Virus record (IMG/VR): IMGVR_UViG_3300048762_000330 | DNA: 64,000 nt | Origin: a virus | Strand: one strand, 5' to 3' | Shown here: piece after piece, positions 9,655-59,008 of the stretch | How the letters are laid out: every line of letters begins with the position of its first letter | Numbering within the stretch: the stretch's first letter is position 1 | The notes under the pieces: generated by a model | Database searches by the model: none | What the model was told of the DNA's origin: nothing | Seen by the model: the letters and a program-made list of their open reading frames with translations, nothing else | Position numbers and translations under genes: made by a program

Positions 9655-10236
9655 ATGGAAAATGCAAATTTCATAATATCCACTCAATACGACGGAAAAC
9701 CTCGTAAACTTTACCGCCATCTGTGTTTGATATGTGATGTGGAATTTTGGGTTCCACGTCATAAAAAAAAGTTATGCTGCTCGCTTACCTGTCGTGGAAA
9801 AGCTAAAACAAAAAATCAAACTGTAATTCTTATTTGTACAAGATGCGGAATTGAATTTCACAAACGACAAAGCAGTTTAGTTAACAGCAAACATCAAAAA
9901 TTTTTTTGTTCAAGAAAATGTAAAGATTTAGCTCAAAGATTAGATGGTGATTGTCCAGAGATCAGACCTTCGCATTACGGAACCGGAACTGGGATTCATG
10001 GATATCGTTTAATAATGGCAAAAGAAATTAAAGATGGATGCATTGATTGTCATGAAACACAATCATATTTTTTGGAAGTTCATCATATAGATGGAAATCG
10101 AAACAATAACGCAAAATCTAATTTGGAGGTTGTTTGCGTGAAAGATCATCGTCGCCGTCATTTACAATTTATAAAGGACACATGGAATTTTAGTTCCCAT
10201 GTGTTAACACCCCGTGAAAATCTGGCTGAAGTTTGA
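9655..10236 (+). CDS. HNH endonuclease with N-terminal zinc-ribbon repeats
   Basis: CxxC...CSxxC repeats; C-terminal CIDC...LEVHHIDGNRNNN...NLEVVC..DH. Confidence 0.85.
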   Translation: MENANFIISTQYDGKPRKLYRHLCLICDVEFWVPRHKKKLCCSLTCRGKAKTKNQTVILICTRCGIEFHKRQSSLVNSKHQKFFCSRKCKDLAQRLDGDCPEIRPSHYGTGTGIHGYRLIMAKEIKDGCIDCHETQSYFLEVHHIDGNRNNNAKSNLEVVCVKDHRRRHLQFIKDTWNFSSHVLTPRENLAEV

Positions 10237-22314: not shown

Positions 22315-22404
22315 GGACGAATGGGTGAGTCTGGTTAAAACCAATTGCCTGTAAAGCAATCCTCCTTCGGGAGTACAAAGGTTCAAATCCTTTTTCGTCC
22401 ACCA
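22315..22404 (+). tRNA. tRNA-Tyr(GUA) 1
   Basis: GGACGAA/TTCGTCC + ACCA; ATTGC-CTGTAAA-GCAAT; long variable arm with TTCG loop; TTCAAAT. Confidence 0.95.
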
Positions 22405-22414
22405 TCTTTCTTTT

Positions 22415-22503
22415 GGCGCATTAGACCGCTAAGGAGACGGCACCCGCTGTAACCGGGTTGTCCTTTATGGACCCGAGAGGTTCGATACCTTTATGCGCCA
22501 CCA
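22415..22503 (+). tRNA. tRNA-Tyr(GUA) 2
   Basis: GGCGCAT/ATGCGCC + ACCA; ACCCG-CTGTAAC-CGGGT; long variable arm; TTCGATA. Confidence 0.92.
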
Positions 22504-22835
22504 AATTCTTTACCAAATATTGATTATATTTGGGGTACAAAGTAAGAGTGGAGTTATTTTTTGGTTTGGGTAATAAAAATATTTGTCCATTTCCACAAAT
22601 GACAAATAGAAAATCATATTTGAGATCCAACCCACCTTTATGCACAAAATTTTTCTTGCTATTTCCGCCTTTTATACTGAGACCAACTATATAAAATCCA
22701 CTTTTAGATATTTGCGTCGTAGTCTTCACCTGGACCTTTTTCAAGCCATCTTCAAACTCCGCAACGAGATCGTAGTCCTGGCTGTCGGTCAACGGAATGC
22801 ATACCGGCATTCCTTGCGAACAGAGATATTCACGG
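22421..22835 (-). pseudogene. PD-(D/E)XK (group I intron-type) endonuclease, 5'-truncated
   Basis: YLCSQG.PVCIPLTDSQDYDLVAE...VQVKT...YDFLFV; N-terminus replaced by antisense of another gene; reads into antisense tRNA-Tyr2. Confidence 0.65.
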
Positions 22836-23074
22836 AAAAGCCGAAAGTGATGATCGAGCGTGGCGAAATGGCATCCGTCGCAATCCATTTGGTCGGAACA
22901 AAAGGACAAGAGATTGAAGACAACGACTACGAATCGATGGCAAAGATGGTTATCGATGCATTCAAAAAGCATCGGGAAGTAATGAAGGAGCGCTCCTTCG
23001 CACCAGCCACTATCGGCCCAAAGAATGTTCCTGCTCTTCAAGACCTTCGGAAAGCACAAATTGATGGAATGTAA
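22835..23074 (+). pseudogene. 3' fragment of a hypothetical gene
   Basis: protein-like TEKPKVMIERGEMASVAIHL... has no own start; upstream is antisense endonuclease. Confidence 0.4.
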
Positions 23075-23116
23075 GAATAGGCACAAAGCTATTTAGTTTT
23101 TCGACTAAATACCATT

Positions 23117-23599
23117 GTGCTTTCATTTGGTCAATTTTTATCAGAAGCTCTAACTAAAAATCAACGACGCACTGGTTTTGGTGAACGTGGATATCGAGGA
23201 TTCGGTGGAAAGTATTATGCCGAATATGGCTTCATAGATTCTCAAAACGGAAAAGTAATCAAAGGTGCTGGTAACGGAGATCATGAGATGCTTGCAAGAA
23301 CGGCACTTCAAATTAAAGGTACCAAAAACCATCAAGATTCAAGTCAGATAGCCATTATGAATGGATTTATCCGATACATCATTTCTCCGCAGCATGAAGG
23401 TATTTTTCATTGTGTGAACCAATCCAGTTCTAGACACAAAATTGTTGACTTTATGCATAATCATCCAAATCTCACAACCTGTTTAATTACTTTTGAGAAA
23501 CCAAACAGCAATGGTGAATTTGAAAATATAAAGAAGTTAAATAGGGACGATTTGGATGATTTAATTTCTGGCGATTTGTCTAGATACAATTACTACTAA
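23117..23599 (+). CDS. late protein with capsid-targeting-like N-terminus
   Basis: CTAAATA-N5-GTG; MLSFGQFLSEA. Confidence 0.65.
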   Translation: MLSFGQFLSEALTKNQRRTGFGERGYRGFGGKYYAEYGFIDSQNGKVIKGAGNGDHEMLARTALQIKGTKNHQDSSQIAIMNGFIRYIISPQHEGIFHCVNQSSSRHKIVDFMHNHPNLTTCLITFEKPNSNGEFENIKKLNRDDLDDLISGDLSRYNYY

Positions 23600-23600
23600 T

Positions 23601-24347
23601 ATGTTAAGCTTTTCTCAATTTCTCATGCTTCAATCCAAATTCGCTGGTGGTCCATCTGGCGCACGCCCATTCGACAACATTCCAATGGGCGACCGGGGCG
23701 GCAATCCGCAGACGGTTTTTCAGAACGCCACGAAAGGACAATTCGGGAATCTAGAGCGAATGAAGTTTGCTTATGAAGACGTGAAAGAGTGGGATATGCA
23801 ATGGTGCTTCGCAGCGCCGTATAAACCATCGTTAGGTGAGTCTGAAAAAAAGAAAGATCAGTATGCTTACATCGATCATCCAGACAAAGGAATACTTTTG
23901 CGTAAGGTGGGAAGCAATCCAAATGAACACGCACATGAATTAATGACAAAGGAACATGGTTTAGATTGGACTAAAACCTATCCACATGGTCATATTTTCA
24001 TTAACCACACAAAGAAAAGAACATCCATGGTTCATTATCCATTAACGGGAAAACAACGAAGAGATTTACACTCTGATCTTCGTACCAAGTTACAAGTTCC
24101 AAAGTCTTATTTACAAGAGTCCGAAGAACCGCATTTGATTGGTAGGATTCAAGATCATCTGAAAGATCCTAACAATGCAATTGTTGTTCGAACAGCGACA
24201 AAAAATTTTGGACCATACAAAAGCAAACACGCCGGAATGTTTAGCAATCCAAGTCGTAAAGAACCAGGAGTATGGATTCAACACGGCAAGGGAAAAATGT
24301 ACGCTGACCCTTCTCAAGTTAAGTTTGGGCACTACAAGACTTCTTAG
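23601..24347 (+). CDS. late protein with capsid-targeting-like N-terminus
   Basis: MLSFSQFLMLQ; tandem with the previous gene. Confidence 0.6.
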   Translation: MLSFSQFLMLQSKFAGGPSGARPFDNIPMGDRGGNPQTVFQNATKGQFGNLERMKFAYEDVKEWDMQWCFAAPYKPSLGESEKKKDQYAYIDHPDKGILLRKVGSNPNEHAHELMTKEHGLDWTKTYPHGHIFINHTKKRTSMVHYPLTGKQRRDLHSDLRTKLQVPKSYLQESEEPHLIGRIQDHLKDPNNAIVVRTATKNFGPYKSKHAGMFSNPSRKEPGVWIQHGKGKMYADPSQVKFGHYKTS

Positions 24348-25141
24348 ATACAAAGCGGATGCGGGTTTTTACGAAAATCTTTTTGTGCTCCGGTTTTTTG
24401 ATAACGGTGCCAATTTTTTCGATTACATGAAAAACACAAAGGTTGAATGTTCCAAATCCAGTTAGTGCCGCCTTTTGAAAGCGGAATGATATGGTCTGGT
24501 GTCAAGTATCTTTCCGCTACCCGGCGATGAGATAATTCTGATTCATGAATACCGCAGTCAAGACAACGAATTTTATATTGCTCTTTTAAATCAATCCATG
24601 CTTGTGGCGGATATGAACCTTCGGCTCCTGCTCGTTTGGCATTAGATTTTCTGTGCGATGCTCGTTGACTTTCATAAAATTTTTCTGGATTTTCTTGACG
24701 CCATTTTCGGCATTGTTCCTGACACTTTTCTGGATTGGCTTGTGACCATTTTCGACTTGCTTCACGACGCTTTTCTGGATTTTCTTGCACCCATTTTTGT
24801 TTTATTTCATTGCTTCTTCCTGGATTTTCTTGTACCCATTTTTGATATCTCTCACGAACCTTTTCTGGATGAGTTTGTGCCCACATTCGTCTGCTTGCAT
24901 GTGCTTTCTCTAAATTTGCCCAATACCATTTTTGAGACTTCTCACAACACTTTTCAGAATTGTCTTGATACCATTCTTTTTTCTTCTTATGAACTTTTTC
25001 TAAATTTTCTTGTTGATATTTTCGATCTGATTTGTGTTTGCAATTAACACAAGCTTTGCTGCTAATAAGTCTTATCAGTGACCCACATGTTACGCACGGC
25101 TTTCCTTCAAAATATTTCGATGATAAATTCTCGGTAGACAT
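24344..25141 (-). CDS. repeat-HNH element copy 3 (intact, 8 repeats)
   Basis: MSTENLSSKYFEGKPC; TPDHIIPLSKGGTNWIWNIQPLCFSCN; ends QKDFR + borrowed tail. Confidence 0.85.
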   Translation of the reverse strand: MSTENLSSKYFEGKPCVTCGSLIRLISSKACVNCKHKSDRKYQQENLEKVHKKKKEWYQDNSEKCCEKSQKWYWANLEKAHASRRMWAQTHPEKVRERYQKWVQENPGRSNEIKQKWVQENPEKRREASRKWSQANPEKCQEQCRKWRQENPEKFYESQRASHRKSNAKRAGAEGSYPPQAWIDLKEQYKIRCLDCGIHESELSHRRVAERYLTPDHIIPLSKGGTNWIWNIQPLCFSCNRKNWHRYQKTGAQKDFRKNPHPLCI

Positions 25142-25213
25142 GATGGCTAACTCCATTGTGTTTAGGCTGCATTGCGAAGGTAAGAACTTCACATGCAGCC
25201 GTTTCTATTTATA
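25142..25213 (-). promoter_or_regulatory. HNH element leader
   Basis: TATAAATA-GAAAC-GGCTGCATGTGAAG..CTTCGCAATGCAGCC-TAAACACAATGGAG. Confidence 0.85.
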
Positions 25214-25216
25214 CTC

Positions 25217-26977
25217 TTACTTCAATCCGCCGATTTGAACCAAATTTGGTTTTGGTTTTGCATTCAAGTGAACAATCCCATTCTGATCCACGGTATTTGC
25301 AAAGTGGCCTGCTGTTTCGTTACCTATTCCTTTTAAAGCAAGTCCTGAAATTACACCTTGAGTTCTTGGCACACCAATCTGTTCATGTCTTTGAAAAATA
25401 TTATCGTCGGCATCGCCCGCAGCAACCGGGTACATTTTTCCGGTGGCATCATCTTGGTAAAATTTTGCTTGGGGTTCATGCTTGCCCCTGCGGTACACAG
25501 ATGCAACTACACCGCCATTCTCCAAGTGTTTGACAACTTCTTTATCATTACTTTCATCGTGACCCGAGCCGGTATGAGACAAAGCTAAATGGTAATTCTG
25601 AGGCTGATCTTTGTGGCCTAAGCGCCCGTGCATCTTTGTGTAGTCGTAAAAAGTTGTATTTGGATTCTCAGGATCATTTCCCAAATGCGAGTGAAAAAAT
25701 TCTTTCGGCATCAAATGTTCATACGGTAAGTCGGATGTAACATTCATACGAATACCAGATTTATAGTGAACAGGTTGGCCTGCTTTGTCAAAGACAGGTT
25801 CCGTTTTTGGAGCCATTATAGGTTTGCCAGACTTCCGATCAACTTTTCCGGTGGGTTGCATTGCTGGCTTGCCATCTGGACCCATCATCGGTCTTTGGAC
25901 TTGCGCTTCCGAAGCTCCCTTTTCATTGTCCAGAATTTCTTGATGCATAATTCGAGCAGCTTCTTCCGGGTGTTCGTGCATAAAGTGTGTACGCAGTAAT
26001 TTGGCTCTTGTTGTTGAAAATGGAAAATTGACATTGCCGCCAGCAGTGAGACCTAAACAACCTTTTCTGCATTCAGAAGAAGCATTTGGACACATGTCAT
26101 ATTCTTTTCCGGTTGTTGGGTGCTGATATCCAGAATGCAAACCAGGACTCAAAGAAAGACCAATAGTTTTGTAACCTACACCAGCACTTGAAAGTGTTTT
26201 GTGGTTTACACCAAACATATTAGATCCTTTGGCTGTAGCTGGACTCAACTTACCATGTTGCACAAGATGATTCACAAACATCTTTCTTGCATCTTGATAT
26301 TTCTTTTGCCGAGTAGGTTCATCTTCCTGTGCAACTTTTTGACCTGTTTTTGGATCAACACCAAATGCAGCATGGAAACCTCTTCGCATATACTCAAACG
26401 GGTTTGACATGGCTTGAGCTTCGTAATGCTTGCCTTGGGCATGTAGAATTCCTGCTTGTTGCCCTCTAGCATTCATTCTTGCTCTAGCTTCATTTTTTAT
26501 ACGTTCTATTTCTTGAACACCATGTTGTTTTTTTGGATCGACGGCTCCACTTTTCCGTTGTTGAAGCCATGCAGCCCGTCTTTCTTTGGCTCTGGCTGCG
26601 GGATCGGCTGATACAGGTTGTTTAAGTGCAACCTTTTTTGGCTTCATTGCCGGTTTTGCAACAGCAGCAGGTTCTTCAGTAAGATCAAAGAATCCTTTAT
26701 ATGGTTCTAGTTCTTCATTCACACTTGCTTCGCCATATATTTTATGGGATTGACCGGGCATGTAAGAAGGGTGAATCATCGGAGAAGAAAGATGGTGAAG
26801 GAACCGACCGACTGTGCTGTCCATCGGATCATCTTCTTCTGATTCTTCAGGCTCTTCCGGTTCTTCGTCTTTTTGAACTGGATTGACAGCTTCGATAAGC
26901 TCTGGTTCAAGTTCAAGAATAGCGTCTAGAAAAGTCGTGCCGAAGAATTTTTTATAATCTTCTGTTGTTAAAGCCAT
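25217..26977 (-). CDS. GP88-like protein with long acidic/basic N-terminal extension
   Basis: C-terminal LSLSPG..CPNAS..CRKGCL..AG..RAK...IRMNVTSD..FYDYTK..NYHL..S; ATAAATA-N5-ATG. Confidence 0.55.
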   Translation of the reverse strand: MALTTEDYKKFFGTTFLDAILELEPELIEAVNPVQKDEEPEEPEESEEDDPMDSTVGRFLHHLSSPMIHPSYMPGQSHKIYGEASVNEELEPYKGFFDLTEEPAAVAKPAMKPKKVALKQPVSADPAARAKERRAAWLQQRKSGAVDPKKQHGVQEIERIKNEARARMNARGQQAGILHAQGKHYEAQAMSNPFEYMRRGFHAAFGVDPKTGQKVAQEDEPTRQKKYQDARKMFVNHLVQHGKLSPATAKGSNMFGVNHKTLSSAGVGYKTIGLSLSPGLHSGYQHPTTGKEYDMCPNASSECRKGCLGLTAGGNVNFPFSTTRAKLLRTHFMHEHPEEAARIMHQEILDNEKGASEAQVQRPMMGPDGKPAMQPTGKVDRKSGKPIMAPKTEPVFDKAGQPVHYKSGIRMNVTSDLPYEHLMPKEFFHSHLGNDPENPNTTFYDYTKMHGRLGHKDQPQNYHLALSHTGSGHDESNDKEVVKHLENGGVVASVYRRGKHEPQAKFYQDDATGKMYPVAAGDADDNIFQRHEQIGVPRTQGVISGLALKGIGNETAGHFANTVDQNGIVHLNAKPKPNLVQIGGLK

Positions 26978-26995
26978 GATTGTATTTATGCAAAA

Positions 26996-27769
26996 TCAAT
27001 CCAATCCAAGTGCAGTTAAGTGTTTGCAAGCCTTACGTCTGCCATTTACAGGAGCATGTTTCGTCCAGCCAGGACATGAGCATCCATAAGTTCCATTTGA
27101 AGCATTTCGGGCCACAACATATTTTCTGCCGCTTGATCGAGATGTAACTTCGTGCCTATTTTCCCATTCTTTTGAAGGAGGAAGTTCTTTCAAACCTTTA
27201 AAAACCGCTAAAGCCGATCCTGCTTCAGCAACCATGGTTCGTAGTTCCGCCGCTTCTAGTTCTGCAATCTGTTCTTCTTCAGAGAGTTCTTCTTCTTTAA
27301 CTGTTCGATTTGACTTAACCCATTCGCCGCCGCAGCCTGAACATTTTTTTTCAATTGGCTTTGCTCCTGGTACATGAACAGTTAATTTGGCACTACACTT
27401 TGGGTTTGAACAATGATATTTCGTTGCTTCGTCAAGTTCAAATTCTTCGTTGACGGCAGCGACCGGCTTGCCCTGAAGCATAGCTTTCAATTCAAGTTTG
27501 ATGCGCTTGGCGGTCTCGCCTTTCCATTGGCTGGCATTGGAAAGAAAATAACTGACCACCGACTGAGCGCTATCTTGTCCGTAGTTGTCTTCCATCTTGT
27601 CCAAAGAGTGCATGGCAGTGAGGTAAGGTTTTGCAGCGTAATAAACGGAATGCCAATCCTTGGCAATTTCGCCTGCGATGTCGGAAATGCTTCTGTAGTT
27701 GTGATAATTTTCGTCCAACACACAGCAAATCGCTTCAAAAAGACCTTCATCAATATCGTTAATTTTCAT
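26996..27769 (-). CDS. acidic protein with C-terminal SWIM-type zinc finger
   Basis: YVVAR...GCSCPGW...CKHL; internal C-x4-C...CxxC. Confidence 0.55.
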   Translation of the reverse strand: MKINDIDEGLFEAICCVLDENYHNYRSISDIAGEIAKDWHSVYYAAKPYLTAMHSLDKMEDNYGQDSAQSVVSYFLSNASQWKGETAKRIKLELKAMLQGKPVAAVNEEFELDEATKYHCSNPKCSAKLTVHVPGAKPIEKKCSGCGGEWVKSNRTVKEEELSEEEQIAELEAAELRTMVAEAGSALAVFKGLKELPPSKEWENRHEVTSRSSGRKYVVARNASNGTYGCSCPGWTKHAPVNGRRKACKHLTALGLD

Positions 27770-27776
27770 AAAGTAC

Positions 27777-28571
27777 CTACCTTTGTTTATTTATGTCTCT
27801 TCGGTAATCAATAATTTTGGTTCCTTTGCCGCCCATTCCATTACAATCGTGGCAAAGCGGTTGGATGTTCGAAATCCAATTTGTTCCAAGTTTTTGATTT
27901 GGACAACGGCAGACTTTATAATTTTTACTACACCACTGACAAACTGAAAGTGGGATTATATGATCTTGTTCCATTGCATAAGGTCGCCCTGTCCTTGGAT
28001 TTATAGAAAATTCTGATTTGTGTTTTTTACAGCAAAGACAATGGTTGTCATATTGTTCTTTTAGATCAATCCAGTCTTGTGTGGTGTAATAACCTTCGGC
28101 TTGATTTCGTTTTGCACGAGATTTTTCCAATGCAACTCGGTGGATTTCACGATATCGTTCACAATTGTTTTCTCGCCGCTTTAGATCCCTTTTATGATTT
28201 TGCTCACGGACTTTTTCTGGATTCGCTTTCAGCCACTTTAGATGATTCTCACGATTCTTTTCTGGATTTGCTTGTTGCCATTTTCGAGATTGCTTATTAG
28301 CTTTTTCTGAATTTTGTTGATACCACCGTTGAACCTTCTCTGGATTTGCTTGTTGCCATTTTCGAACAATCTCACGAGCCTTTTCTAGATTAGCTCGACG
28401 CCATTTTCGATTTGCTTTAAGAACTTTTTCTGAATTTTCTTGTTGCCATTTTCGAGCCTGATTAAATGCACAATCAACACAGTGTTTATTGCTTGCATAC
28501 CTTTTCGTTGACCCACACTTCTTGCATGGTTTTCCTTCAAAATATTTGGGTGATAAATTATCTTCAGACAT
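27777..28571 (-). CDS. repeat-HNH element copy 4 (intact)
   Basis: MSEDNLSPKYFEGKPCKKC; EQDHIIPLS..GTNWISNIQPLCHDC; IIDYR + tail. Confidence 0.85.
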   Translation of the reverse strand: MSEDNLSPKYFEGKPCKKCGSTKRYASNKHCVDCAFNQARKWQQENSEKVLKANRKWRRANLEKAREIVRKWQQANPEKVQRWYQQNSEKANKQSRKWQQANPEKNRENHLKWLKANPEKVREQNHKRDLKRRENNCERYREIHRVALEKSRAKRNQAEGYYTTQDWIDLKEQYDNHCLCCKKHKSEFSINPRTGRPYAMEQDHIIPLSVCQWCSKNYKVCRCPNQKLGTNWISNIQPLCHDCNGMGGKGTKIIDYRRDINKQR

Positions 28572-28639
28572 GACGGGCACTCCGTTGTGTTTAGGCTGCT
28601 TGAGAAGGTCACACTTCCCATGCAGCCGTTACTATTTAG
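28572..28639 (-). promoter_or_regulatory. HNH element leader
   Basis: CTAAATA-GTAAC-GGCTGCATGGGAAG..CTTCTCAAGCAGCC-TAAACACAACGGAG. Confidence 0.85.
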
Positions 28640-28692
28640 CATTGCAAAAACTATTGACATCTTTCAGCGTTTGTGATATGCTGAAATCTGCT

Positions 28693-28782
28693 GGATTTAG
28701 CGTTGGTTGTGGTGTGCGAGGAAATCTCGCAACGGCGGTTCTCTAATCGTCTTTCCGCTCTTGAATCACCAGCGCTAAATCC
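28693..28782 (+). ncRNA. candidate small RNA (three-way junction)
   Basis: 15-bp GGATTTAGCGTTGGT/ACCAGCGCTAAATCC stem; GCGAG/CTCGC and GCGG/CCGC arms; TTGACA-17-TATGCT promoter just upstream. Confidence 0.5.
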
Positions 28783-28839
28783 TCTGCGGTATTTATCCTT
28801 CCCTCTCTCAACAAATTCCTATTTCTCTCTTGACAATTT

Positions 28840-28849
28840 AGATGCATCT
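28840..28849. promoter_or_regulatory. palindromic AGATGCATCT operator-like site in promoter spacer
   Basis: between TTGACA and TATCCT; recurs at 40370, 40677, 42663, 52070. Confidence 0.6.
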
Positions 28850-28868
28850 ATGGTATCCTAGAATTGTA

Positions 28869-29276
28869 ATGAAGATCAACGATGCAATGAAACTGCCGGA
28901 AGGCACCAACTATTACGAAGTCTCCGAAGAGGTCTGGTATCAAACCGGCCCGGATGACGCTGATCGAGATTTCGACAATTTTCAAACGTTCGACAATTTT
29001 GCGGAAGCCATCGCTGCCGTTTTGAAATCGAACACCCACAATCGCCTCTACATCGACTTGATGGTGCGTACCAACAAAGATGGTCGGTTTGGCGCATACG
29101 GATTGCCGGTGTGGTCTGGTAGCAGACTCATGATGCTCGATTGCAAGCCAACTGGCTGGCTAGTAAACATGCAGCCTGATTTACCCTCTGGACGCACGGA
29201 ATGTATTACAGAACTTGAAGCGTGTGCATCGGCTATCATTTGGAAGTGGTGGAATGCCAGGAAGCGTAATGGGTAA
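28869..29276 (+). CDS. hypothetical protein
   Basis: ATG just downstream of a sigma70 promoter. Confidence 0.55.
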   Translation: MKINDAMKLPEGTNYYEVSEEVWYQTGPDDADRDFDNFQTFDNFAEAIAAVLKSNTHNRLYIDLMVRTNKDGRFGAYGLPVWSGSRLMMLDCKPTGWLVNMQPDLPSGRTECITELEACASAIIWKWWNARKRNG

Positions 29277-29321
29277 ATATCAAGGGCTAAATATCTTGAT
29301 GAACCGGAAGTAAATGACAAT

Positions 29322-30563
29322 ATGCAGACCTTTACACAATTCATAGCGGAGGAAGGTCATGGATCGCATCAAGATGCGTTGCATATCATTCGTACTTTGA
29401 AGTCTCACGGATATGAGCATTCATACATTGCTGGTGGGGCTGTAAGAGATACGCTCCGTGGGCGGCAAGATCAAATCAAAGACTTTGATGTAGCCACCGA
29501 GTGTCCGATGGAAGTGACGCTCAAATTGTTTCCCGGTAGTCAAAAAGTTGGGGCTGCATTTGGTGTATGTCTGTATCGAGGCATTGAGATTGCTCAATTT
29601 CGTCAGGAACAAGGATCTGTCGATTCAAGACACCCTACAAATGTTACCTTTGTACGAGATCCAAAACAAGATCAACAACGGCGTGATTTCACAATCAATT
29701 CTGCCATGATGGATGACAATGGGAAAGTGTTGGATCACTTTGGAGCAAAGCGGGACATTGAAAAAAAGGTTATCAGATTTGTTGGTAATCCAGATGATCG
29801 TTTGTCCGACGATCTTTTGAGAGCATTAAGAGCTTGCCGTTTCGCCACAAAGCTTGGCTTCGAAATTGAACCCGAGAGTTTGGCCGCAATCAAAAAACAT
29901 GCTCCAAATATTCTTAAAATCTCTGCTGAACGTATTACACAAGAAATAACTAAAAGCTTGGAAGCGAATCCGGGTCGGACATTGGAGCTTTTGCAAGCTA
30001 CCAATTTGCTCAAATATATCCTACCCGAAGTGGACAATTTAAGTCCTAAACAGCACAGCACATTAATGAACATCCTAAACCAATCTCATTCCGAGAGCCA
30101 TATGTTCGCTCTGGCTGCTTTGTTCTCTGAACTGGACCAGAACACCGTCCAACGCATTCTGAAGCGCCAAAGGCTATCTAATGACGAACAAAGCCATATT
30201 CTCGCTGTATTGGGATTGCAGCAACGCATTTCCGCCGTCTCTGAACGCACCAGCATGGATGTAATGAAGCGCCTGATGCGGGAGCCGTTCTTTGCAGATG
30301 CCTTGAAATTGTATGGAATGCGAGTTCGAGCCGGTGACGGTGCTGTGAGCCGCCACCCATTCGATTTTTTGACGAAGCTTTTTGGTCGGATGCGGGCGGA
30401 CGATTTGCACCCCGAGAAATTGATATCGGGCGATGATCTCGTAAAACTTGGTATGAAGCCAGGAAAGCAATTCAAAGACATCTTGGATCGAATTGAAAAT
30501 GCCCAACTTCGTGGTGAAATACATTCCAAAGCACAAGCCTTGGCGATGGTTCATTCAATATGA
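29322..30563 (+). CDS. cca: CCA-adding tRNA nucleotidyltransferase / poly(A) polymerase family
   Basis: AGGAVRD..G...KDFDVAT, RRDFTINS, DD.LRALRA.RFA, ISAERI..E; N-terminus MQTFTQFIAEE. Confidence 0.9.
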   Translation: MQTFTQFIAEEGHGSHQDALHIIRTLKSHGYEHSYIAGGAVRDTLRGRQDQIKDFDVATECPMEVTLKLFPGSQKVGAAFGVCLYRGIEIAQFRQEQGSVDSRHPTNVTFVRDPKQDQQRRDFTINSAMMDDNGKVLDHFGAKRDIEKKVIRFVGNPDDRLSDDLLRALRACRFATKLGFEIEPESLAAIKKHAPNILKISAERITQEITKSLEANPGRTLELLQATNLLKYILPEVDNLSPKQHSTLMNILNQSHSESHMFALAALFSELDQNTVQRILKRQRLSNDEQSHILAVLGLQQRISAVSERTSMDVMKRLMREPFFADALKLYGMRVRAGDGAVSRHPFDFLTKLFGRMRADDLHPEKLISGDDLVKLGMKPGKQFKDILDRIENAQLRGEIHSKAQALAMVHSI

Positions 30564-30802
30564 ACCCGCCAAAAGATTACACCATTCAAGAATTAACTCA
30601 TGATGTTCGTGTTCTCATGGACTATCTTCACGAACGTGGAATTTTGAATCGGTTTTACCCAGGTGTTGATTTCAACGCTATGACAATTCTGACAAAAGAT
30701 GGTGAAATCGACGTAGATGTGTTTGATGGTGTGATCGAAATACCGCCAGAGATTGTCAACAAAATTCGTCGGTTTATTTCTTTGCAAGGGCCGACAAGTT
30801 GA
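30560..30802 (+). CDS. hypothetical protein
   Basis: coupled to cca. Confidence 0.5.
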   Translation: MNPPKDYTIQELTHDVRVLMDYLHERGILNRFYPGVDFNAMTILTKDGEIDVDVFDGVIEIPPEIVNKIRRFISLQGPTS

Positions 30803-31304
30803 CAGAAACACCAGCTTGAAGCACTGGGTTCCATCCAGCACTTGCGCCACCTACAAAAAGCATTCTTTCCGGCGCTACGAATGAGACAACCGGCGTAATT
30901 TGTACAACGGTAGTAAACACAAACGAAGACGAAAAATTAATGTTAGTGCCGCTTGGTTGGGCGGAACTAAAACTAGGTCCGATATCACCGCCAAGCAAAA
31001 ATGTAAAGCGACCTGTAGTCAACAAGCTCTTATGTAAACCTTGTCTAATTCCAGCGGATATTCCCCAAAATGCTTGACCTGTTGCCGTTGTCATTTTCTT
31101 TGTAAAAATATCGGCTGTGGTGGTCATATACACACCACTTTGCCCAACTATCGGATAAAGAGCAGTAAGACCTATAGTAAACTTTGGTGAGCCAAGTTGA
31201 TTATACGATTGTACAGCGGAAACAGATGCCGGAAGTGGAAATGTGGGGAAAGTCTGGCAGAACGCAACACTACAAAACGCAAGTAAAAGTAAAAGGTTTT
31301 TCAT
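30774..31304 (-). CDS. exported beta-rich protein
   Basis: signal/lipoprotein-like N-terminus MKNLLLLLAFCSVAFC. Confidence 0.5.
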   Translation of the reverse strand: MKNLLLLLAFCSVAFCQTFPTFPLPASVSAVQSYNQLGSPKFTIGLTALYPIVGQSGVYMTTTADIFTKKMTTATGQAFWGISAGIRQGLHKSLLTTGRFTFLLGGDIGPSFSSAQPSGTNINFSSSFVFTTVVQITPVVSFVAPERMLFVGGASAGWNPVLQAGVSVNLSALAKK

Positions 31305-34986: not shown

Positions 34987-35250
34987 ATGGAACTTGAACC
35001 GCTTGAACCTCAATATTTTGATTGTGCTTGTTATTCTTCCGAACACACATTAAAGTTCACTTGGGATGATGAAGACAATGAGATTTATACTGAGGTCTTT
35101 CTGCGTCAGTACCGTAACTTCTTTAAGCGAATCTGGATTGCGATAAAATACATATTTGGTTACAAGTGTCGATACGGGCATTGGGATTGCTTTGTGCTAC
35201 AAAATAAAGATGCTCAACGATTGAAGTGCCTGTTGGACAAATTAAAATGA
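34987..35250 (+). CDS. hypothetical protein
   Basis: CTAAATA-N5-ATG. Confidence 0.6.
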   Translation: MELEPLEPQYFDCACYSSEHTLKFTWDDEDNEIYTEVFLRQYRNFFKRIWIAIKYIFGYKCRYGHWDCFVLQNKDAQRLKCLLDKLK

Positions 35251-36332
35251 ACATCAGTCAGCTTTCTCAGATATGGAAGACATTATTAATCGGTCAAGAT
35301 CAAGCAATCGATAAAATCACACCATACCTCGTCCGGGCACAAGCAAATCTAAATGCACCAGGAAAACCAATTGGCGTATTTTTCCTGATGGGTCCAACAG
35401 GCTGCGGGAAAACAAAAAGCGCTGAGACACTAGCCGAACTACTTCATGGCAACGAAAAAAATATTCTTCGTGTTGATTGCGGCGAATTTCAGATGGAGCA
35501 TGAAGTAGCAAAAATAATTGGTGCGCCTCCTGGATATTTGGGTCATAGAGAAACACAGCCAGTTTTTACACAGCAGAAGCTCAACGCTATTGCATCGGAT
35601 AAAAGTCCGTTCAGTATTATTTTGTTTGATGAAATTGAAAAAGCACATCCTGGTGTCTGGCGTGCTATTCTTGGTATCTTAGATAAAGCCGTCCTGCGCC
35701 TTGGAGACAATTCTCAAACTAATTTTGAGAAGTGTATTATTTTTCTTAGTTCCAATGTGGGAACTAAAGAGATCAGCAATCTTTTATCACCAGGATTCGG
35801 CTTTATGGAAGCACGTCTAGTCAACAAAGTCACTGATACACAGCAAAAGACAATTGAAAAGATTGGACTTGGTGCGATGGCAAAAAAGTTTCCACCTGAA
35901 TTTCAAAATCGTGTAGATGAGATCATTACATACCGCAGTTTGGATAAAAATGCGCTTTCATTAATTACCGAAATTGAACTGACCAAGATACGTAGACATA
36001 TTCAAGAACGTCTTGGAAGTATGTCATTTACTTTCATTTACGAAAAAGACACAATAGATTTCATTACGAATATTGGAACTAGTATAAAATTCGGAGCGAG
36101 AGAACTTAAGCGTACTTTAGGTCGTTATATTTTGAATCCTCTTGCCGATAACTTTGTAGATGGTAAAATTTCACAAGGTAGTTTGGTTAAATGCAAAGTA
36201 GTGAATAACCAAATCGAATGGATTATAGAAGCACCAGCCGCTAAATCAGATGAAGAAGAGTTTGTTTTTTCTACCGCTGCTGCGGAAAGCACGACGGTTA
36301 AAAAGACTCGCCGAGCCAAGATTTCTAATTAA
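35247..36332 (+). CDS. ClpA/ClpB-type AAA+ ATPase (single D2 module)
   Basis: IGQDQAI, GPTGCGKT, GAPPGYLGH, ILFDEIEKAH, PEFQNR.D, GARELKR. Confidence 0.9.
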   Translation: MNISQLSQIWKTLLIGQDQAIDKITPYLVRAQANLNAPGKPIGVFFLMGPTGCGKTKSAETLAELLHGNEKNILRVDCGEFQMEHEVAKIIGAPPGYLGHRETQPVFTQQKLNAIASDKSPFSIILFDEIEKAHPGVWRAILGILDKAVLRLGDNSQTNFEKCIIFLSSNVGTKEISNLLSPGFGFMEARLVNKVTDTQQKTIEKIGLGAMAKKFPPEFQNRVDEIITYRSLDKNALSLITEIELTKIRRHIQERLGSMSFTFIYEKDTIDFITNIGTSIKFGARELKRTLGRYILNPLADNFVDGKISQGSLVKCKVVNNQIEWIIEAPAAKSDEEEFVFSTAAAESTTVKKTRRAKISN

Positions 36333-37517: not shown

Positions 37518-38765
37518 TTACTTTGGAAACGGTACGAGTGAACTGTCCTTTATCAAAAGTAAATGCGTCAAAAATTTGTCTCTGTTGATTGTGTGCCGAA
37601 CGCTCTGAACCAAAAATCTTCCATTGTAATACTTGTCATCAATTTGTTGATCTTGAATGGTAGGCTCTGGCGACGGGAGTCTCAATTCGATAACTTCTCC
37701 TATGGTGCGGTCGGAATCGCCAGGAATGGTAAGTGAAATTTTAACATTCTGCAATTGCTGAAGTTGTGAAATTCTGCATGGTATCCATTTTTCAGGCATT
37801 GTTGGATACCCATCTTGATCATGCCCGGTTGAATGAAATTTCAATCTACTGTCTGGTTTATCGTCATTAAATTTTGCATTGAAAAGATAGTTACCCGGAT
37901 AAAGATGTTTGTATTTGTCAAATGATTGAGGGTAATCGAATGTGTAATCCTTCCAAAGTTTTCTTGTTTGGCTGTATGTGATTAGCTCGTTCCCATACAT
38001 TCCGCTTTGTAGGTTCTCTAAAATGTTGCTGGAGTTTTCGAAAGTATAAGTTTGCATCGCAATGACATCTGCTGGAAGATCTGGAGCGTGGTGAGTTAAT
38101 CCGTCTTTACGAATATTAGCAGGCTGAAAAGTATAGTGCTGTGCGACTGGTTGCGCTAATCTCGATTCCATTGACACAAATTGAAATTGATCTTTGTCTT
38201 CGTAGTAAAGGTAATTTGCACCTTCATACATTGCGGAATTGGCTCTCATGGCAAGCCAGTTAATTGCATGGCAAGGATTCAGCTTGGGAATGATAATGTG
38301 TTGTTGAAACTTAGTTGGCTCGATAATAATTGAACCACCTTTGAGCCAATTTTTGTGCAAGTCATATACAATATCACTCACCAGCGCTCCTTTATACGAC
38401 TTGCTTACCCGCACTTTCAAATTGTTGATGGCTTCCACGCTGACGAAATGAAGAATGTATGCAGCACACCGTTCTTTGAGTAATGTCCGATTGGAAATGT
38501 TGAACAAACGGAAAGTTTTTTTGAAAGTGGTGTTTTTGTGTGGGGTTTTAAATTCGAGCAGCAACGTCTCGAATCCAAAAAGCGGAAGATTTTGAATCAT
38601 GTTCGTGGTGTCGGTCACGAGTATGTCAGCGGTTGTTTGGTTGTTGAATAAATCTTGATAAACGTTGCATTCACTTTGTACAAAACGAATATTATGTTTT
38701 ACTTCATCCACGGTTGTTAAAACCATTTGGATAATTTCGTAAGCCCCAACATAATTATTGGCCAT
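37518..38765 (-). CDS. baseplate hub / tail-associated protein (T4-like)
   Basis: D..NMIQNLPL.G.E.L...F.TP; IPGDS...IGEVI; YYNGRFLV..VRH. Confidence 0.6.
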   Translation of the reverse strand: MANNYVGAYEIIQMVLTTVDEVKHNIRFVQSECNVYQDLFNNQTTADILVTDTTNMIQNLPLFGFETLLLEFKTPHKNTTFKKTFRLFNISNRTLLKERCAAYILHFVSVEAINNLKVRVSKSYKGALVSDIVYDLHKNWLKGGSIIIEPTKFQQHIIIPKLNPCHAINWLAMRANSAMYEGANYLYYEDKDQFQFVSMESRLAQPVAQHYTFQPANIRKDGLTHHAPDLPADVIAMQTYTFENSSNILENLQSGMYGNELITYSQTRKLWKDYTFDYPQSFDKYKHLYPGNYLFNAKFNDDKPDSRLKFHSTGHDQDGYPTMPEKWIPCRISQLQQLQNVKISLTIPGDSDRTIGEVIELRLPSPEPTIQDQQIDDKYYNGRFLVQSVRHTINRDKFLTHLLLIKDSSLVPFPK

Positions 38766-44232: not shown

Positions 44233-44784
44233 TCATACAATGGCTTGTTTCATGATCTGATCGGCTTCGTTGTCCACTTGACTCACAAATTTTTTATCTA
44301 GCAGCCGAATGGTGCGTTTCGCTTCATTGGCAGCAACTTCTGCATCATAGATCATAACCACGCTACGCTCAGATGCGGGTAGATGTAAGTAGGTGGTTTC
44401 GTCAATCGGATTGCCCCACTTATCTTCATAATGGTCAACGGTTTGATAAGCGTATACAAGTCCATCTCGAATAGATGTACTATATTTTTTCTGAATTGTG
44501 GCGATGAGATCGTCTTGATTCATCGGCCAATCATACACCGGATCAACGATGTTGTTTGCAAGAAGTACCAACCAATGATATTGGCTTGAGCCATACAGCT
44601 TGTCAGCAATGATTTCCGGCGTGTCGTTTTCTTTTATTTGATATGTGTAAAACACAAGATAATCGTTGATTAAAATGTCCCGCATTTTAATTCGTTGGAG
44701 AATGTTAACAGCAATGGTCTTCTGTCCATCACCATTGATATCGTATCCCAAAAGTTGAAATTTGCTAAAGAAAGGATTAGGCAC
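44233..44784 (-). CDS. baseplate wedge protein (T4 gp53-like, LysM-like)
   Basis: FFSKF....Y; YQIKENDTPEIIADKLYGS..YHWLVLLANNIVDP.YDWP; CTAAATA-N5-GTG. Confidence 0.8.
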   Translation of the reverse strand: MPNPFFSKFQLLGYDINGDGQKTIAVNILQRIKMRDILINDYLVFYTYQIKENDTPEIIADKLYGSSQYHWLVLLANNIVDPVYDWPMNQDDLIATIQKKYSTSIRDGLVYAYQTVDHYEDKWGNPIDETTYLHLPASERSVVMIYDAEVAANEAKRTIRLLDKKFVSQVDNEADQIMKQAIV

Positions 44785-45325
44785 AAAACTATTTAGAACC
44801 AAAAGATACATCTGTCGAAGCAACTTGACAGTTTTCGGAATGCGTGCGATGATAGAAAGTATGTTGGACAAATATCGTGAGGTTGAAGACCATTTTGAAT
44901 GTGTGAAATGTGGAGCCATCATTCTCGCAGCTACGGTTGCCCATCCAATATGGGACGGACCATTTCCTTGTTCTGGTAGCGGCCAGTGTCAATACGAAGA
45001 TGTCCATATTGTCCCACATGCGAGAAAGTGCCTTCTTACAACGGGCGTCCCATTACAATTCCATTCACTTTAACACACATGATGAAGACGGAGCCAAAAC
45101 TCTGTCGCCGGAAGACGAAGCAATCTGGAACTCTCAATTACACGCTGGTGGATTTGTCGCTCATCAACTTGATTCTAAACACGGAAAGGGGTTTTATAAA
45201 TTGATGGATGCTATTTTGTCGTATGAAGATACCTTTCGAGACGGAAAATATCACTCCACGGATGAAGTGCTTGCCGCATTGTTGGAATTGATTCGTGTTG
45301 GTTTGGTGCGCTACGAGGTTGTGCC

Positions 45326-52458: not shown

Positions 52459-52805
52459 TGAAACTGATGACGAAAGAAGTCGCCGCCCGAATTCCTACTC
52501 TCTATTCCCAAGAGCACAATTCCAATCCGACCGTCCAGGCAAAGTTTTTCACGCCATGGACGAATTGGACATGGTATGTAATCGAAGGCGAAAAGACTTC
52601 CGAGTGGGTGGAAGGCAAGCAGCAAAAAGTCGCCGACTGGCTATTTTTCGGCTATGTGGTTGGGCACGAATGCGAGCTTGGCTACTTCACGCTGAATGAG
52701 CTTGCCAGTGTTCGTGGACCGGCTGGCCTGAAAATCGAGCGGGACATGTATTTTAAACCCACTCCGTTGTCCGACATCAAAGCGAAGCATCTCGATGAAA
52801 AATAA
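52458..52805 (+). CDS. DUF2958-like protein
   Basis: P.LYSQE...V..KFFTPW.NWTWY..E...FGYV.G.E.ELGYF.L.EL. Confidence 0.7.
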   Translation: MKLMTKEVAARIPTLYSQEHNSNPTVQAKFFTPWTNWTWYVIEGEKTSEWVEGKQQKVADWLFFGYVVGHECELGYFTLNELASVRGPAGLKIERDMYFKPTPLSDIKAKHLDEK

Positions 52806-53706
52806 ACCCACCTGCGAAGACATGCTCACCGCCGCCGAATGGCTGGATGTCAATGGCAGTCAAGCCAAAGACGGCGATAATGAAGATGAAATGGCATCTT
52901 GCACCAAGGTCGCTGAATGGCTTCGTGCCAAGGTTGAAAAGGCTGACAAAAAACGGCTCGAAGAAACTGCCGTTGAAGAGATTTTATTGCGGCTTGAAGG
53001 TACGGGCACAACCAAGCAGGAAGCAAGAGCTAAAAAATTCCTTTCTGTGTGCGAACAAGAACAGGTTCGAAAACTCTTTCTTACCGGGCAGACCGCCGAT
53101 GGCCTTCAATACAAATTTCTCGATGAACTCATAGATGCTTTGCAGAGCAGAGGATTTGAAGTTGGCGTGAGAACCAACGGGTATCTTGCAAAAAAGAAAC
53201 TCACCGCCATTCAAAAAATGCAGGGCGAAATCGGCTATTCAATCCATACGATTCGGCCAGAAACTAACAAGCTAATCATGGGCCGAAGAGATCTGCCGGA
53301 TTGGGAAACAATCATTCCAGCCAGCGGCTCGAATGTGCGGGTCGCCATCGTGCTCAACCGCTACAATGTTACGGAATTTGACGAGATTGTCAAGTACATT
53401 GCAAAATTCCCGAATGTGCGCTACATTCAAGTAAGACGAATTTCAACGGATACTCGTCTTGCTTTGTTGCAAGAAGACATAGCGCTTTTTGAAAAATTCT
53501 ACACACAGTTTTCGGCCACGCATGAACAAACCGGAAGGTATTACAAAGCTCAACAATTTGAAGTGGAAGGAAAAGAAGTAGTCTTCTGGCGAACGATTGA
53601 GACATCAGTCAACAGCCTCAACTATTTTACTGACGGTACGGTCAGTGATGAATACTTTATTATTGAAGGGTACTTGAAGAACTTGGAGAGACCAAAATGC
53701 CAGTGA
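52795..53706 (+). pseudogene. chimera of a hypothetical N-terminus and a radical-SAM-like C-terminus lacking CxxxCxxC
   Basis: after about 53030: LFLTGQTAD, VRTNGY, IGYSIH, VRYIQVRRISTD; no Fe-S motif. Confidence 0.5.
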
Positions 53707-58444: not shown

Positions 58445-58993
58445 TTATTTTACCACAGTTAGCCGGTCAAGTAGATTTTCAAAATCCTGTTGCAAGTCTG
58501 GCTGCTTGAATTTTCCATCACCCATCACGAAAGCAAACGAAATTGCGAATAGCTCATCATATTGATATTGAAAACCCGAATGTGAGAATGAATACTTCCA
58601 CTCACCAAGTTCAATCCAAAGATAGCGAGTACCGGTCTGTTGCTTCAACCATTCATGAGATGGACGACATGCAACTTTGATCCGATCTAGCAACGGTTTG
58701 ATAGTACTTTCAATAAAGTCTTTGTCAGTGTGGGTCAAAATTTCGTGTCCCAATTCATGAAAAAAGTTCTCGATACTATCACCGGGCCGCATCGCAATAA
58801 TTCCATCGGGAGAATTGGTTTCAATTTCGTAGGAATGTTTGAATTGTTTGCTATTAAGTTGCACCCATTTGATATGACTCCATAATCCAAATCGTGCCGC
58901 CGCCGCTTCCACTGTTTTAGGTGGTCTGACATCCGGTAACCCGGCGTAATATTCCAGCGGGTACTCGATAATAAACTGAGCGAATGTAATCAC
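58445..58993 (-). CDS. late protein with HExxH motif and capsid-targeting-like N-terminus
   Basis: CTAAATA-N5-GTG; MITFAQFIIE; FFHELGHE; ELFA.SF. Confidence 0.65.
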   Translation of the reverse strand: MITFAQFIIEYPLEYYAGLPDVRPPKTVEAAAARFGLWSHIKWVQLNSKQFKHSYEIETNSPDGIIAMRPGDSIENFFHELGHEILTHTDKDFIESTIKPLLDRIKVACRPSHEWLKQQTGTRYLWIELGEWKYSFSHSGFQYQYDELFAISFAFVMGDGKFKQPDLQQDFENLLDRLTVVK

Positions 58994-59008
58994 AGGTATA
59001 TTTAGAGT

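Follow-up and report, generated by a model that had tools for sequence, protein, structure and literature searches.

Internal proteins that bear a capsid-targeting sequence (CTS) are textbook knowledge for the T-even phages. In the T4 record, IPII and IPIII begin with MKTYQEFIAE/A (the slash marks the cut), IPI with MKTFKEF...ITE/A and Alt with MELITELFDE/D, and the head proteins gp24 and gp23 are cut at ...LLRE/S and FLTE/A, respectively. The gp21 prohead protease cuts off the T4 CTS (Mullaney & Black 1996, cited from the reviews PMC9026906 and PMC3012670). In IPIII, residues 4 and 7 are the main determinants of targeting, and residues 8 and 10 are those of processing; Asp at position 10 prevents cutting, not packaging, and the CTS has already been suggested as an evolutionary device for loading varied proteins (PMC9026906). 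Here, we analyzed a stretch of 64,000 nucleotides (the window) from the IMG/VR virus record IMGVR_UViG_3300048762_000330, a 64-kb part of a 68.6-kb metagenomic contig of a large phage, in which four open reading frames (ORFs), including one for a CCA-adding-type tRNA nucleotidyltransferase (hereafter, the CCA enzyme) and one for a protein with an HExxH motif, begin with a similar short peptide. These ORFs had been singled out in an earlier reading of the DNA (the original prediction), whose description of the T4 tag as MKTYQEFIAE, cleaved after Glu, is confirmed by the T4 record and PMC8442874. Our results suggest that the shared peptide is a T4-type CTS and that the tagged enzymes, together with two small proteins, are packed in the head and delivered with the DNA, a reading to which we give a probability of roughly three in four.

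The tagged ORFs and the tags with a predicted cut are as follows:

23117-23599, plus strand: ORF of 160 aa with a GTG start, beginning MLSFGQFLSEA
23601-24347, plus strand: ORF of 248 aa with an ATG start, beginning MLSFSQFLMLQ
29322-30563, plus strand: CCA enzyme, ORF of 413 aa with an ATG start, beginning MQTFTQFIAEE
58445-58993, minus strand: HExxH protein (ORF 58993), 182 aa with a GTG start, beginning MITFAQFIIEY, with HELGH at residues 79-83
23117-23146, plus strand: tag of ORF 23117, MLSFGQFLSE, predicted cut after Glu-10 (L-S-E/A)
29322-29351, plus strand: tag of the CCA enzyme, MQTFTQFIAE, predicted cut after Glu-10 (I-A-E/E)
58964-58993, minus strand: tag of the HExxH protein, MITFAQFIIE, predicted cut after Glu-10 (I-I-E/Y)

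All four start peptides conform to M-x-[ST]-F-x-Q-F-[LI], and the claim that four ORFs share a T4-like N-terminus was borne out, since each ORF was found in its predicted place and with its predicted peptide. When all six reading frames of the window were translated, the more permissive pattern [MVL]-x-[ST]-[FY]-x-[QE]-F-[LIVM] matched exactly four times, and every match coincided with the earliest possible start codon of an ORF of at least 160 aa; in 200 shuffles of the window, the average was 0.17 matches and no shuffle exceeded 2. The codons used for the tags vary among the four copies (TCA or AGC for Ser, CTT or TTA for Leu, TTT or TTC, and CAA or CAG); because of these differences, the likeness lies at the level of the peptide rather than of the DNA or RNA, indicating selection on the peptide. 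An all-against-all BLASTP comparison showed that mutual similarity among ORFs 23117, 29322 and 58993 and the 23601 family is confined to residues 1-11. Phe-4 and Phe-7 are present in all four proteins, and Phe-4 is invariant in the CCA-enzyme clade, where position 7 is Phe, Tyr or His. Ile or Leu at position 8 is combined with Glu-10 in ORF 23117 (L-S-E), the CCA enzyme (I-A-E) and the HExxH protein (I-I-E), and all CCA-enzyme orthologs likewise have the gp21 motif I/L-x-E. The most conserved tag positions (4, 7, 8 and 10) are the very positions mapped in T4 as determinants of targeting and processing.

ORF 29322 matched PF01743 (1e-22), PF12627 (2e-18) and PF13735 (1e-8), the domains of a class II tRNA nucleotidyltransferase, and phrog_2244 in PHROGs (8e-60). 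Its best NCBIfam match was the CCA equivalog NF009814 (239 bits, for a cut-off of 290), with PcnB at 132 bits, and the GG-x-VRD and RRDFT-x-N motifs were invariant in the CCA-enzyme alignment (A1). By these matches, the protein is a class II tRNA nucleotidyltransferase with a Pol-beta-type head domain, an RNA-binding neck and a tail domain, and it is likely to be specifically CCA-adding. The original prediction had proposed a comparison with the N-termini of cellular CCA enzymes, and this went in its favor: the tag was present in 18/18 full-length phage orthologs (42-82% identity) and missing in the cellular enzymes, about 100 of which (P0024-P0120) start approximately 15 residues further on, where the fold has its first helix. 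The 18 orthologs, several of which sit on jumbo contigs of 320-405 kb, start with x-[ST]-F-x-[QE]-[FYH], followed by an invariant Glu within a few residues (position 10-13); in some of the records, gene calling had put a few extra residues upstream of the tag. In the AlphaFold model of the CCA enzyme, residues 1-11 alone had a predicted local distance difference test (pLDDT) score below 50 and the remainder averaged 92. Because the low scores stop at residue 11, the tag appears to be a detached add-on that ends at the predicted cut, which is the single conserved cut site in the CCA family.

A megablast search of window positions 23000-31000 against cultured phages gave no match, an IMG/VR search with the single CCA protein as query gave no relative, and an IMG/VR profile search brought up nothing but CCA enzymes from outside the clade, with identities of up to 44%; the clade member in IMG/VR (G001, see below) surfaced only through the DNA-pattern scan described below. 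In tblastn comparisons with the CCA genes of cultured phages, the alignments began past the tag and hence revealed no tag in common, the N-termini of those genes not having been directly inspected; the nearest cultured match of the CCA enzyme was to the Acidobacteriota phage Tunturi_5, at 30% identity. Just upstream of the tagged pair 23117 and 23601, the window carries two tandem tRNA genes:

22315-22404, plus strand: tRNA-Tyr (GTA) gene with an encoded 3' CCA
22415-22503, plus strand: tRNA-Tyr (GTA) gene with an encoded 3' CCA

Since both genes encode CCA, the likely task of the CCA enzyme is the repair of damaged 3' ends and not the maturation of phage tRNAs, and such 3'-end repair fits a role in counter-defense.

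A second group of CCA enzymes in IMG/VR has an N-terminal extension of 27-29 residues that starts with M-[KR]-F-x-x-Y-[LI]-x-E-A. It was found at loci L013, L015, L020, L021, L024, L026, L028-L030, L038, L039, L043, L047, L054, L060, L069 and L076, where the ORFs start approximately 80-100 nt before position 10001 of each locus. The extension has the same spacing as the T4 CTS (an aromatic residue, two residues, an aromatic residue, [LI], one residue and Glu), and is shifted by one residue toward the N-terminus. Homologs of gp5, gp25, gp4 or UvsW are encoded at many of these loci, and the extension was common to no cultured phage.

We then considered the other tagged proteins. ORFs 23117, 23601 and 58993 had no match in Pfam, PHROGs or NCBIfam. 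The original prediction had called the product of ORF 58993 metalloprotease-like. Its motif supports this, as His-79, Glu-80 and His-83 are invariant in 13 sequences (alignment A3) and the HExxH lies within helix 74-87 of a model with a pLDDT of 89. All Foldseek matches were zincins (lethal-factor-type, ImmA/IrrE and M48/M56), but they were weak (best E-values of 2e-3 to 4e-3, TM-scores below 0.5). Based on the motif and the model, the protein is a probable zincin-like metallopeptidase. Phe-4 and Glu-10 of its tag are kept in at least 90% of 12 full-length homologs. ORF 23117 had no homologs among 5.8 billion proteins and no useful Atlas neighbor, and its sequence suggests an orphan, internal-protein-like cargo with an isoelectric point (pI) of 8.5. 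The product of ORF 23601 is also basic (pI 9.6) and is modular: small stand-alone proteins exist that correspond to its N-terminal 77 aa, to its middle part or to its last 80 residues, and the one that corresponds to the middle part bears its own tag, MITFAQFIVEE. A tblastn search with ORF 23601 against cultured phages gave no match. Its middle module is also present as nine repeats in a 1031-aa protein (P0136).

The tagged ORFs had further been predicted to lie, all of them, under late promoters. The window holds 24 copies of the sequence CTAAATA where 7.4 would be expected, and 24 was attained in none of 100 shuffles. Three copies are placed upstream of tagged ORFs:

23105-23111, plus strand: CTAAATA late-promoter-like element, 5 nt before the GTG start of ORF 23117
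29287-29293, plus strand: CTAAATA element, 28 nt upstream of the CCA-enzyme start
58999-59005, minus strand: CTAAATA element, 5 nt before the GTG start of ORF 58993

The prediction was thus correct for ORFs 23117, 29322 and 58993 but not, as worded, for ORF 23601, which has no promoter of its own and abuts ORF 23117, starting 1 nt past its stop. From this context, the tagged genes appear to be expressed late. As seen at window positions 23105-23119 and 58991-59005 (minus strand) and at the starts in L001, L002 and L004, tagged genes often begin 4-6 nt after CTAAATA and have no ribosome-binding site. The mRNAs of such genes would be leaderless or nearly so, if transcription starts as it does at T4 late promoters.

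Next, we asked to which phages the window belongs and what head machinery its lineage possesses. The window encodes two T4-type tail components:

44233-44922, minus strand: homolog of the T4 gp53 baseplate wedge protein (tblastn E=7e-12; PF11246)
37518-38765, minus strand: T4-superfamily tail protein, phrog_350

Among the listed matches of the tail protein in cultured phages, most were to cyanophages and to Pelagibacter, Vibrio, Aeromonas and Rhizobium phages. By these genes, the window phage is a member of the T4 superfamily. A relative, IMGVR_UViG_3300050821_002957 (G001), has a genome of 405,631 bp that is 100% complete by CheckV and bears a CCA-enzyme ortholog (P0020); the window is collinear with kb 242-299 of G001 at 35-74% amino-acid identity. 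G001 encodes a gp20 portal (38% identical to that of T4), a gp22-like scaffold, gp23 (36% identical) and a gp21-type protease (G001:24478-25206; Peptidase_S77, E=1.4e-38, above the curated cut-off), along with gp17, gp19, gp5, gp6, gp25, gp13-15, gp2, gp4 and UvsW. When its capsid protein was aligned to T4 gp23, L-M-E/A fell on the T4 maturation site L-T-E/A. Together, the gp20, gp21, gp22 and gp23 genes and the L-M-E/A site indicate that the lineage has a T4-type head assembly line, and the aligned site suggests that its head protease very probably has the T4 cut specificity.

G001 also extends the range of tagged proteins. The tag was found on approximately seven unrelated ORFs of this genome, most of them directly behind a (C/G)TAAATA element. 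One of them, at 369676-370587 on the plus strand (L225:9676-10587), encodes a 303-aa protein that begins MKTFAQFMTE/D and whose residues 15-155 form an Acb1 domain (PF23474, E=5e-22), a phosphodiesterase activity directed against the cyclic-oligonucleotide-based antiphage signaling system (CBASS). This combination suggests that an anti-CBASS enzyme is loaded into the capsid in G001. T4 gene 57B (L086:23952-24410, minus strand), which adjoins ipI, encodes a protein that starts with MMEFKDF, having Phe at positions 4 and 7, which resembles the part of the CTS responsible for targeting, and no Glu-10; the record annotates it as an RNA ligase. The first strand of the 57B protein aligns with the post-tag part of the G001 Acb1-domain protein, which suggests that 57B is the Acb1 homolog of T4.

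We scanned IMG/VR for a DNA pattern consisting of CTAAATA, 4-6 nt and then M-x-[ST]-F-x-[QE]-F, so that the spacing and these residues were imposed. The scan returned 119 loci with 80 distinct ORFs of at least 50 aa. At the positions that had not been imposed, position 8 was hydrophobic in 69/80 ORFs and Glu was present at position 9 or 10 in 53/80; the motif [LIVFM]-x-E occurred within residues 7-14 in 65/80. The cargo was diverse and mostly of no known function, with a few helix-turn-helix proteins, a Zn_protease, a zeta-toxin-like kinase and a flavin mononucleotide reductase, and two common tagged proteins had no annotated counterpart in cultured phages. Judged by this pattern, the tag is widespread on viral contigs that use the CTAAATA late-promoter motif.

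These observations can be assembled into the following proposal; the steps that we infer in it are docking, cleavage, persistence within the head, ejection and an action that precedes phage transcription. The ten residues M-x-[ST]-F-x-Q-F-[LIV]-x-E would serve as a T4-type CTS on four proteins whose late expression would be driven by CTAAATA promoters. Through its aromatic residues, at positions 4 and 7, the CTS would dock these proteins on the scaffolding core of the assembling prohead, where a gp21-type head protease would cut after Glu-10 (with Ile, Leu or Val at position 8) in three of the four. Once freed, the enzymes would stay in the full head and pass into the next host together with the DNA. 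The load would consist of the CCA-adding enzyme, for mending tRNA 3' ends, along with the zincin-like HExxH protein and both small basic proteins, and its likely purpose would be to have counter-defense or repair activities in place before any phage gene is expressed.

Loading into the prohead core does not by itself entail delivery, and the tagged proteins could instead serve in assembly or as scaffold, or be degraded. In T4, gp21 destroys gp22, gp67 and gp68 after these core proteins have likewise been directed to the core (PMC5694885), and IPIII influences head morphogenesis (PMC9026906). An assembly role is plausible for the products of ORFs 23117 and 23601, which have no recognizable enzyme domain. 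It is implausible for a complete tRNA nucleotidyltransferase with a pLDDT of 92, for the Acb1 enzyme of G001 and for the HExxH protein; moreover, the only cut site conserved in the CCA family is the one where the tag ends, as in the T4 internal proteins that survive and are ejected. We therefore regard this explanation as improbable for the tagged set, although it is the strongest of the rivals to packaging and delivery.

A still less probable explanation is that the tag is read by some other phage enzyme, either as a degron or handle for a ClpX-like AAA+ protein or as the leader recognized by a modifying enzyme. A ClpX-like AAA+ protein (AAA_2/ClpB_D2-small, 35226-36332) is indeed conserved in the window and its relatives, and the window has a weak radical-SAM-like ORF at 52795-53706 on the plus strand (PF04055, 24.9 bits, below the cut-off). 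However, T4, where the peptide has been shown to load and be cut in the head, is not known to have such an AAA+ partner. The radical-SAM leader reading was rejected for the clade because G001 is tagged and yet has no credible radical-SAM gene (its best match scored 14 bits and contained an internal stop) and no SPASM domain. Furthermore, conservation at positions 8 and 10 is as expected for cutting by gp21, whose motif is likewise kept in the G001 capsid protein, and the agreement with both the mapped T4 determinants and the capsid cut site favors the head protease as the reader of the tag. The shared start could lastly be an RNA-level signal for translation of leaderless late mRNAs that start 5 nt past CTAAATA, with the peptide as a by-product, in keeping with two of the four starts lying exactly at that distance and with many IMG/VR examples of such spacing (although the scan imposed it), but this is very unlikely because synonymous codons vary freely, including TCA versus AGC for Ser, and in addition ORF 23601 and the CCA gene have other 5' contexts and the T4 internal-protein genes encode the same peptide behind ordinary ribosome-binding sites.

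Several points weigh against packaging and delivery as we propose them. ORF 23601 (L-M-L-Q) and its family have Gln at position 11 and no Glu-10, which makes cleavage there doubtful; its peptide may at best be a targeting-only variant, so that the protein is loaded and left uncut, or the tag may have another role in this family. In one relative (L001), CTAAATA is missing directly upstream of the CCA gene. No head genes lie on the window's own 68.6-kb contig, and those considered here are extrapolated from a relative whose CCA enzyme is 46% identical. The CCA-encoding tRNA genes fit a repair function and do not establish a need for early delivery. Finally, packaging and cleavage are deduced from sequence, in a clade that has no cultured member and is known from genomes alone.

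More broadly, and more tentatively, we propose that environmental phages of the T4 superfamily use a short CTS as a general label with which counter-defense and RNA-repair enzymes are preloaded, CCA enzymes being a recurrent cargo in view of the second lineage; we put the chances of this generalization at slightly below even. Phage-injected proteins act when exposure to host defenses is greatest. Apart from those of T4, P1, N4 and the phiKZ group, few examples are known. If the proposal is true, repair of tRNA 3' ends and destruction of cyclic-nucleotide signals would begin at DNA entry, before phage transcription, which would offer a testable answer to the question of how large phages survive tRNA-targeting and CBASS-type defenses in the first minutes. 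The set of effectors injected by uncultured giant phages would then be readable from a ten-residue sequence in their genomes, and the T4 CTS packaging tool would be extended to new natural cargo sizes and types.

Other genes of the window lie close to these loci or were encountered during the analysis. The interval that separates the tagged pair from the CCA gene holds two protein genes, with a copy of a dispersed HNH endonuclease on either side:

25217-26977, minus strand: GP88-family protein (PF17338), 586 aa, conserved in relatives
26996-27769, minus strand: 257-aa protein, phrog_13953

A mechanically called ORF of 221 aa (22421-23086, minus strand) with a PD-(D/E)XK match (PF11645) overlaps the second tRNA-Tyr gene. 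The gene for the ClpX-like AAA+ protein (plus strand), whose PHROGs match is annotated as an ATP-dependent protease, adjoins genes for a GIY-YIG endonuclease and the tail protein in all relatives seen. The radical-SAM-like ORF has no counterpart in G001.

Among described systems, the tag most resembles the CTS of T4 IPII, IPIII and IPI. Both are located at the extreme N-terminus, span approximately ten residues and have aromatic residues at positions 4 and 7, Ile, Leu or Val at position 8 and Glu at position 10; between the CCA-enzyme tag and that of IPIII, 6/10 positions are identical and two more are conservative. As in T4, the peptide is borne by otherwise unrelated proteins, in a lineage that has, in G001, gp20, gp21, gp22 and gp23. 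The cargo differs in going beyond small basic proteins to a tRNA nucleotidyltransferase of 46 kDa, an HExxH protein and, in G001, Acb1. The bearer is a jumbo (320-405 kb) soil or environmental lineage that is far from the T-even phages and known from sequence alone. Several of the tagged genes, unlike those of T4, start 5 nt past a late promoter without a ribosome-binding site, and the 23601 family lacks the Glu required for cleavage.

The proposed fate of the CCA enzyme has a parallel in T4 Alt, an ADP-ribosyltransferase that is packaged in the head and injected. Alt, too, is an enzyme rather than a structural protein, and an N-terminal propeptide that ends in Glu directs it to the core of the prohead. 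After cleavage by gp21, it acts in the next host ahead of phage gene expression, as would the enzymes proposed here. It differs in the sequence of its propeptide and in its activity, which in the present case would be tRNA 3'-end synthesis or repair. The ejection proteins of phiKZ-like phages and SPN3US are also unrelated head-internal proteins whose N-terminal propeptides are removed after Glu by a gp21-related protease (PMC5694885). Their propeptides, however, comprise 80-130 residues and are cut at A/S/G-x-E, whereas the tags described here are of the short T4 type with I/L/V-x-E.

With respect to the enzyme itself, the closest counterparts are the CCA enzymes of jumbo phages (groups 2 and 3; Iyer et al. 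2021, PMC7824862), which belong to the same family and are presumed to restore tRNA 3' ends within RNA-repair gene sets. They were not described there as virion cargo, and the tag is an addition of the present clade. The papers that we consulted contain no report of a packaged CCA enzyme or a packaged Acb1. The CCA enzyme of Atu_ph07 (gp18) appears, in the supplement of the paper, only in the annotation table, from which presence in the virion could not be established, and a CCA-enzyme-like protein of the podovirus SU10, detected by one peptide in a phage preparation, was listed among the early products (PMC4281155) and is too weak a precedent. Compared with these systems, what is new here is the cargo (a CCA enzyme, an HExxH protein and, in G001, Acb1), the jumbo environmental lineage that carries it and the near-leaderless late genes that encode it.

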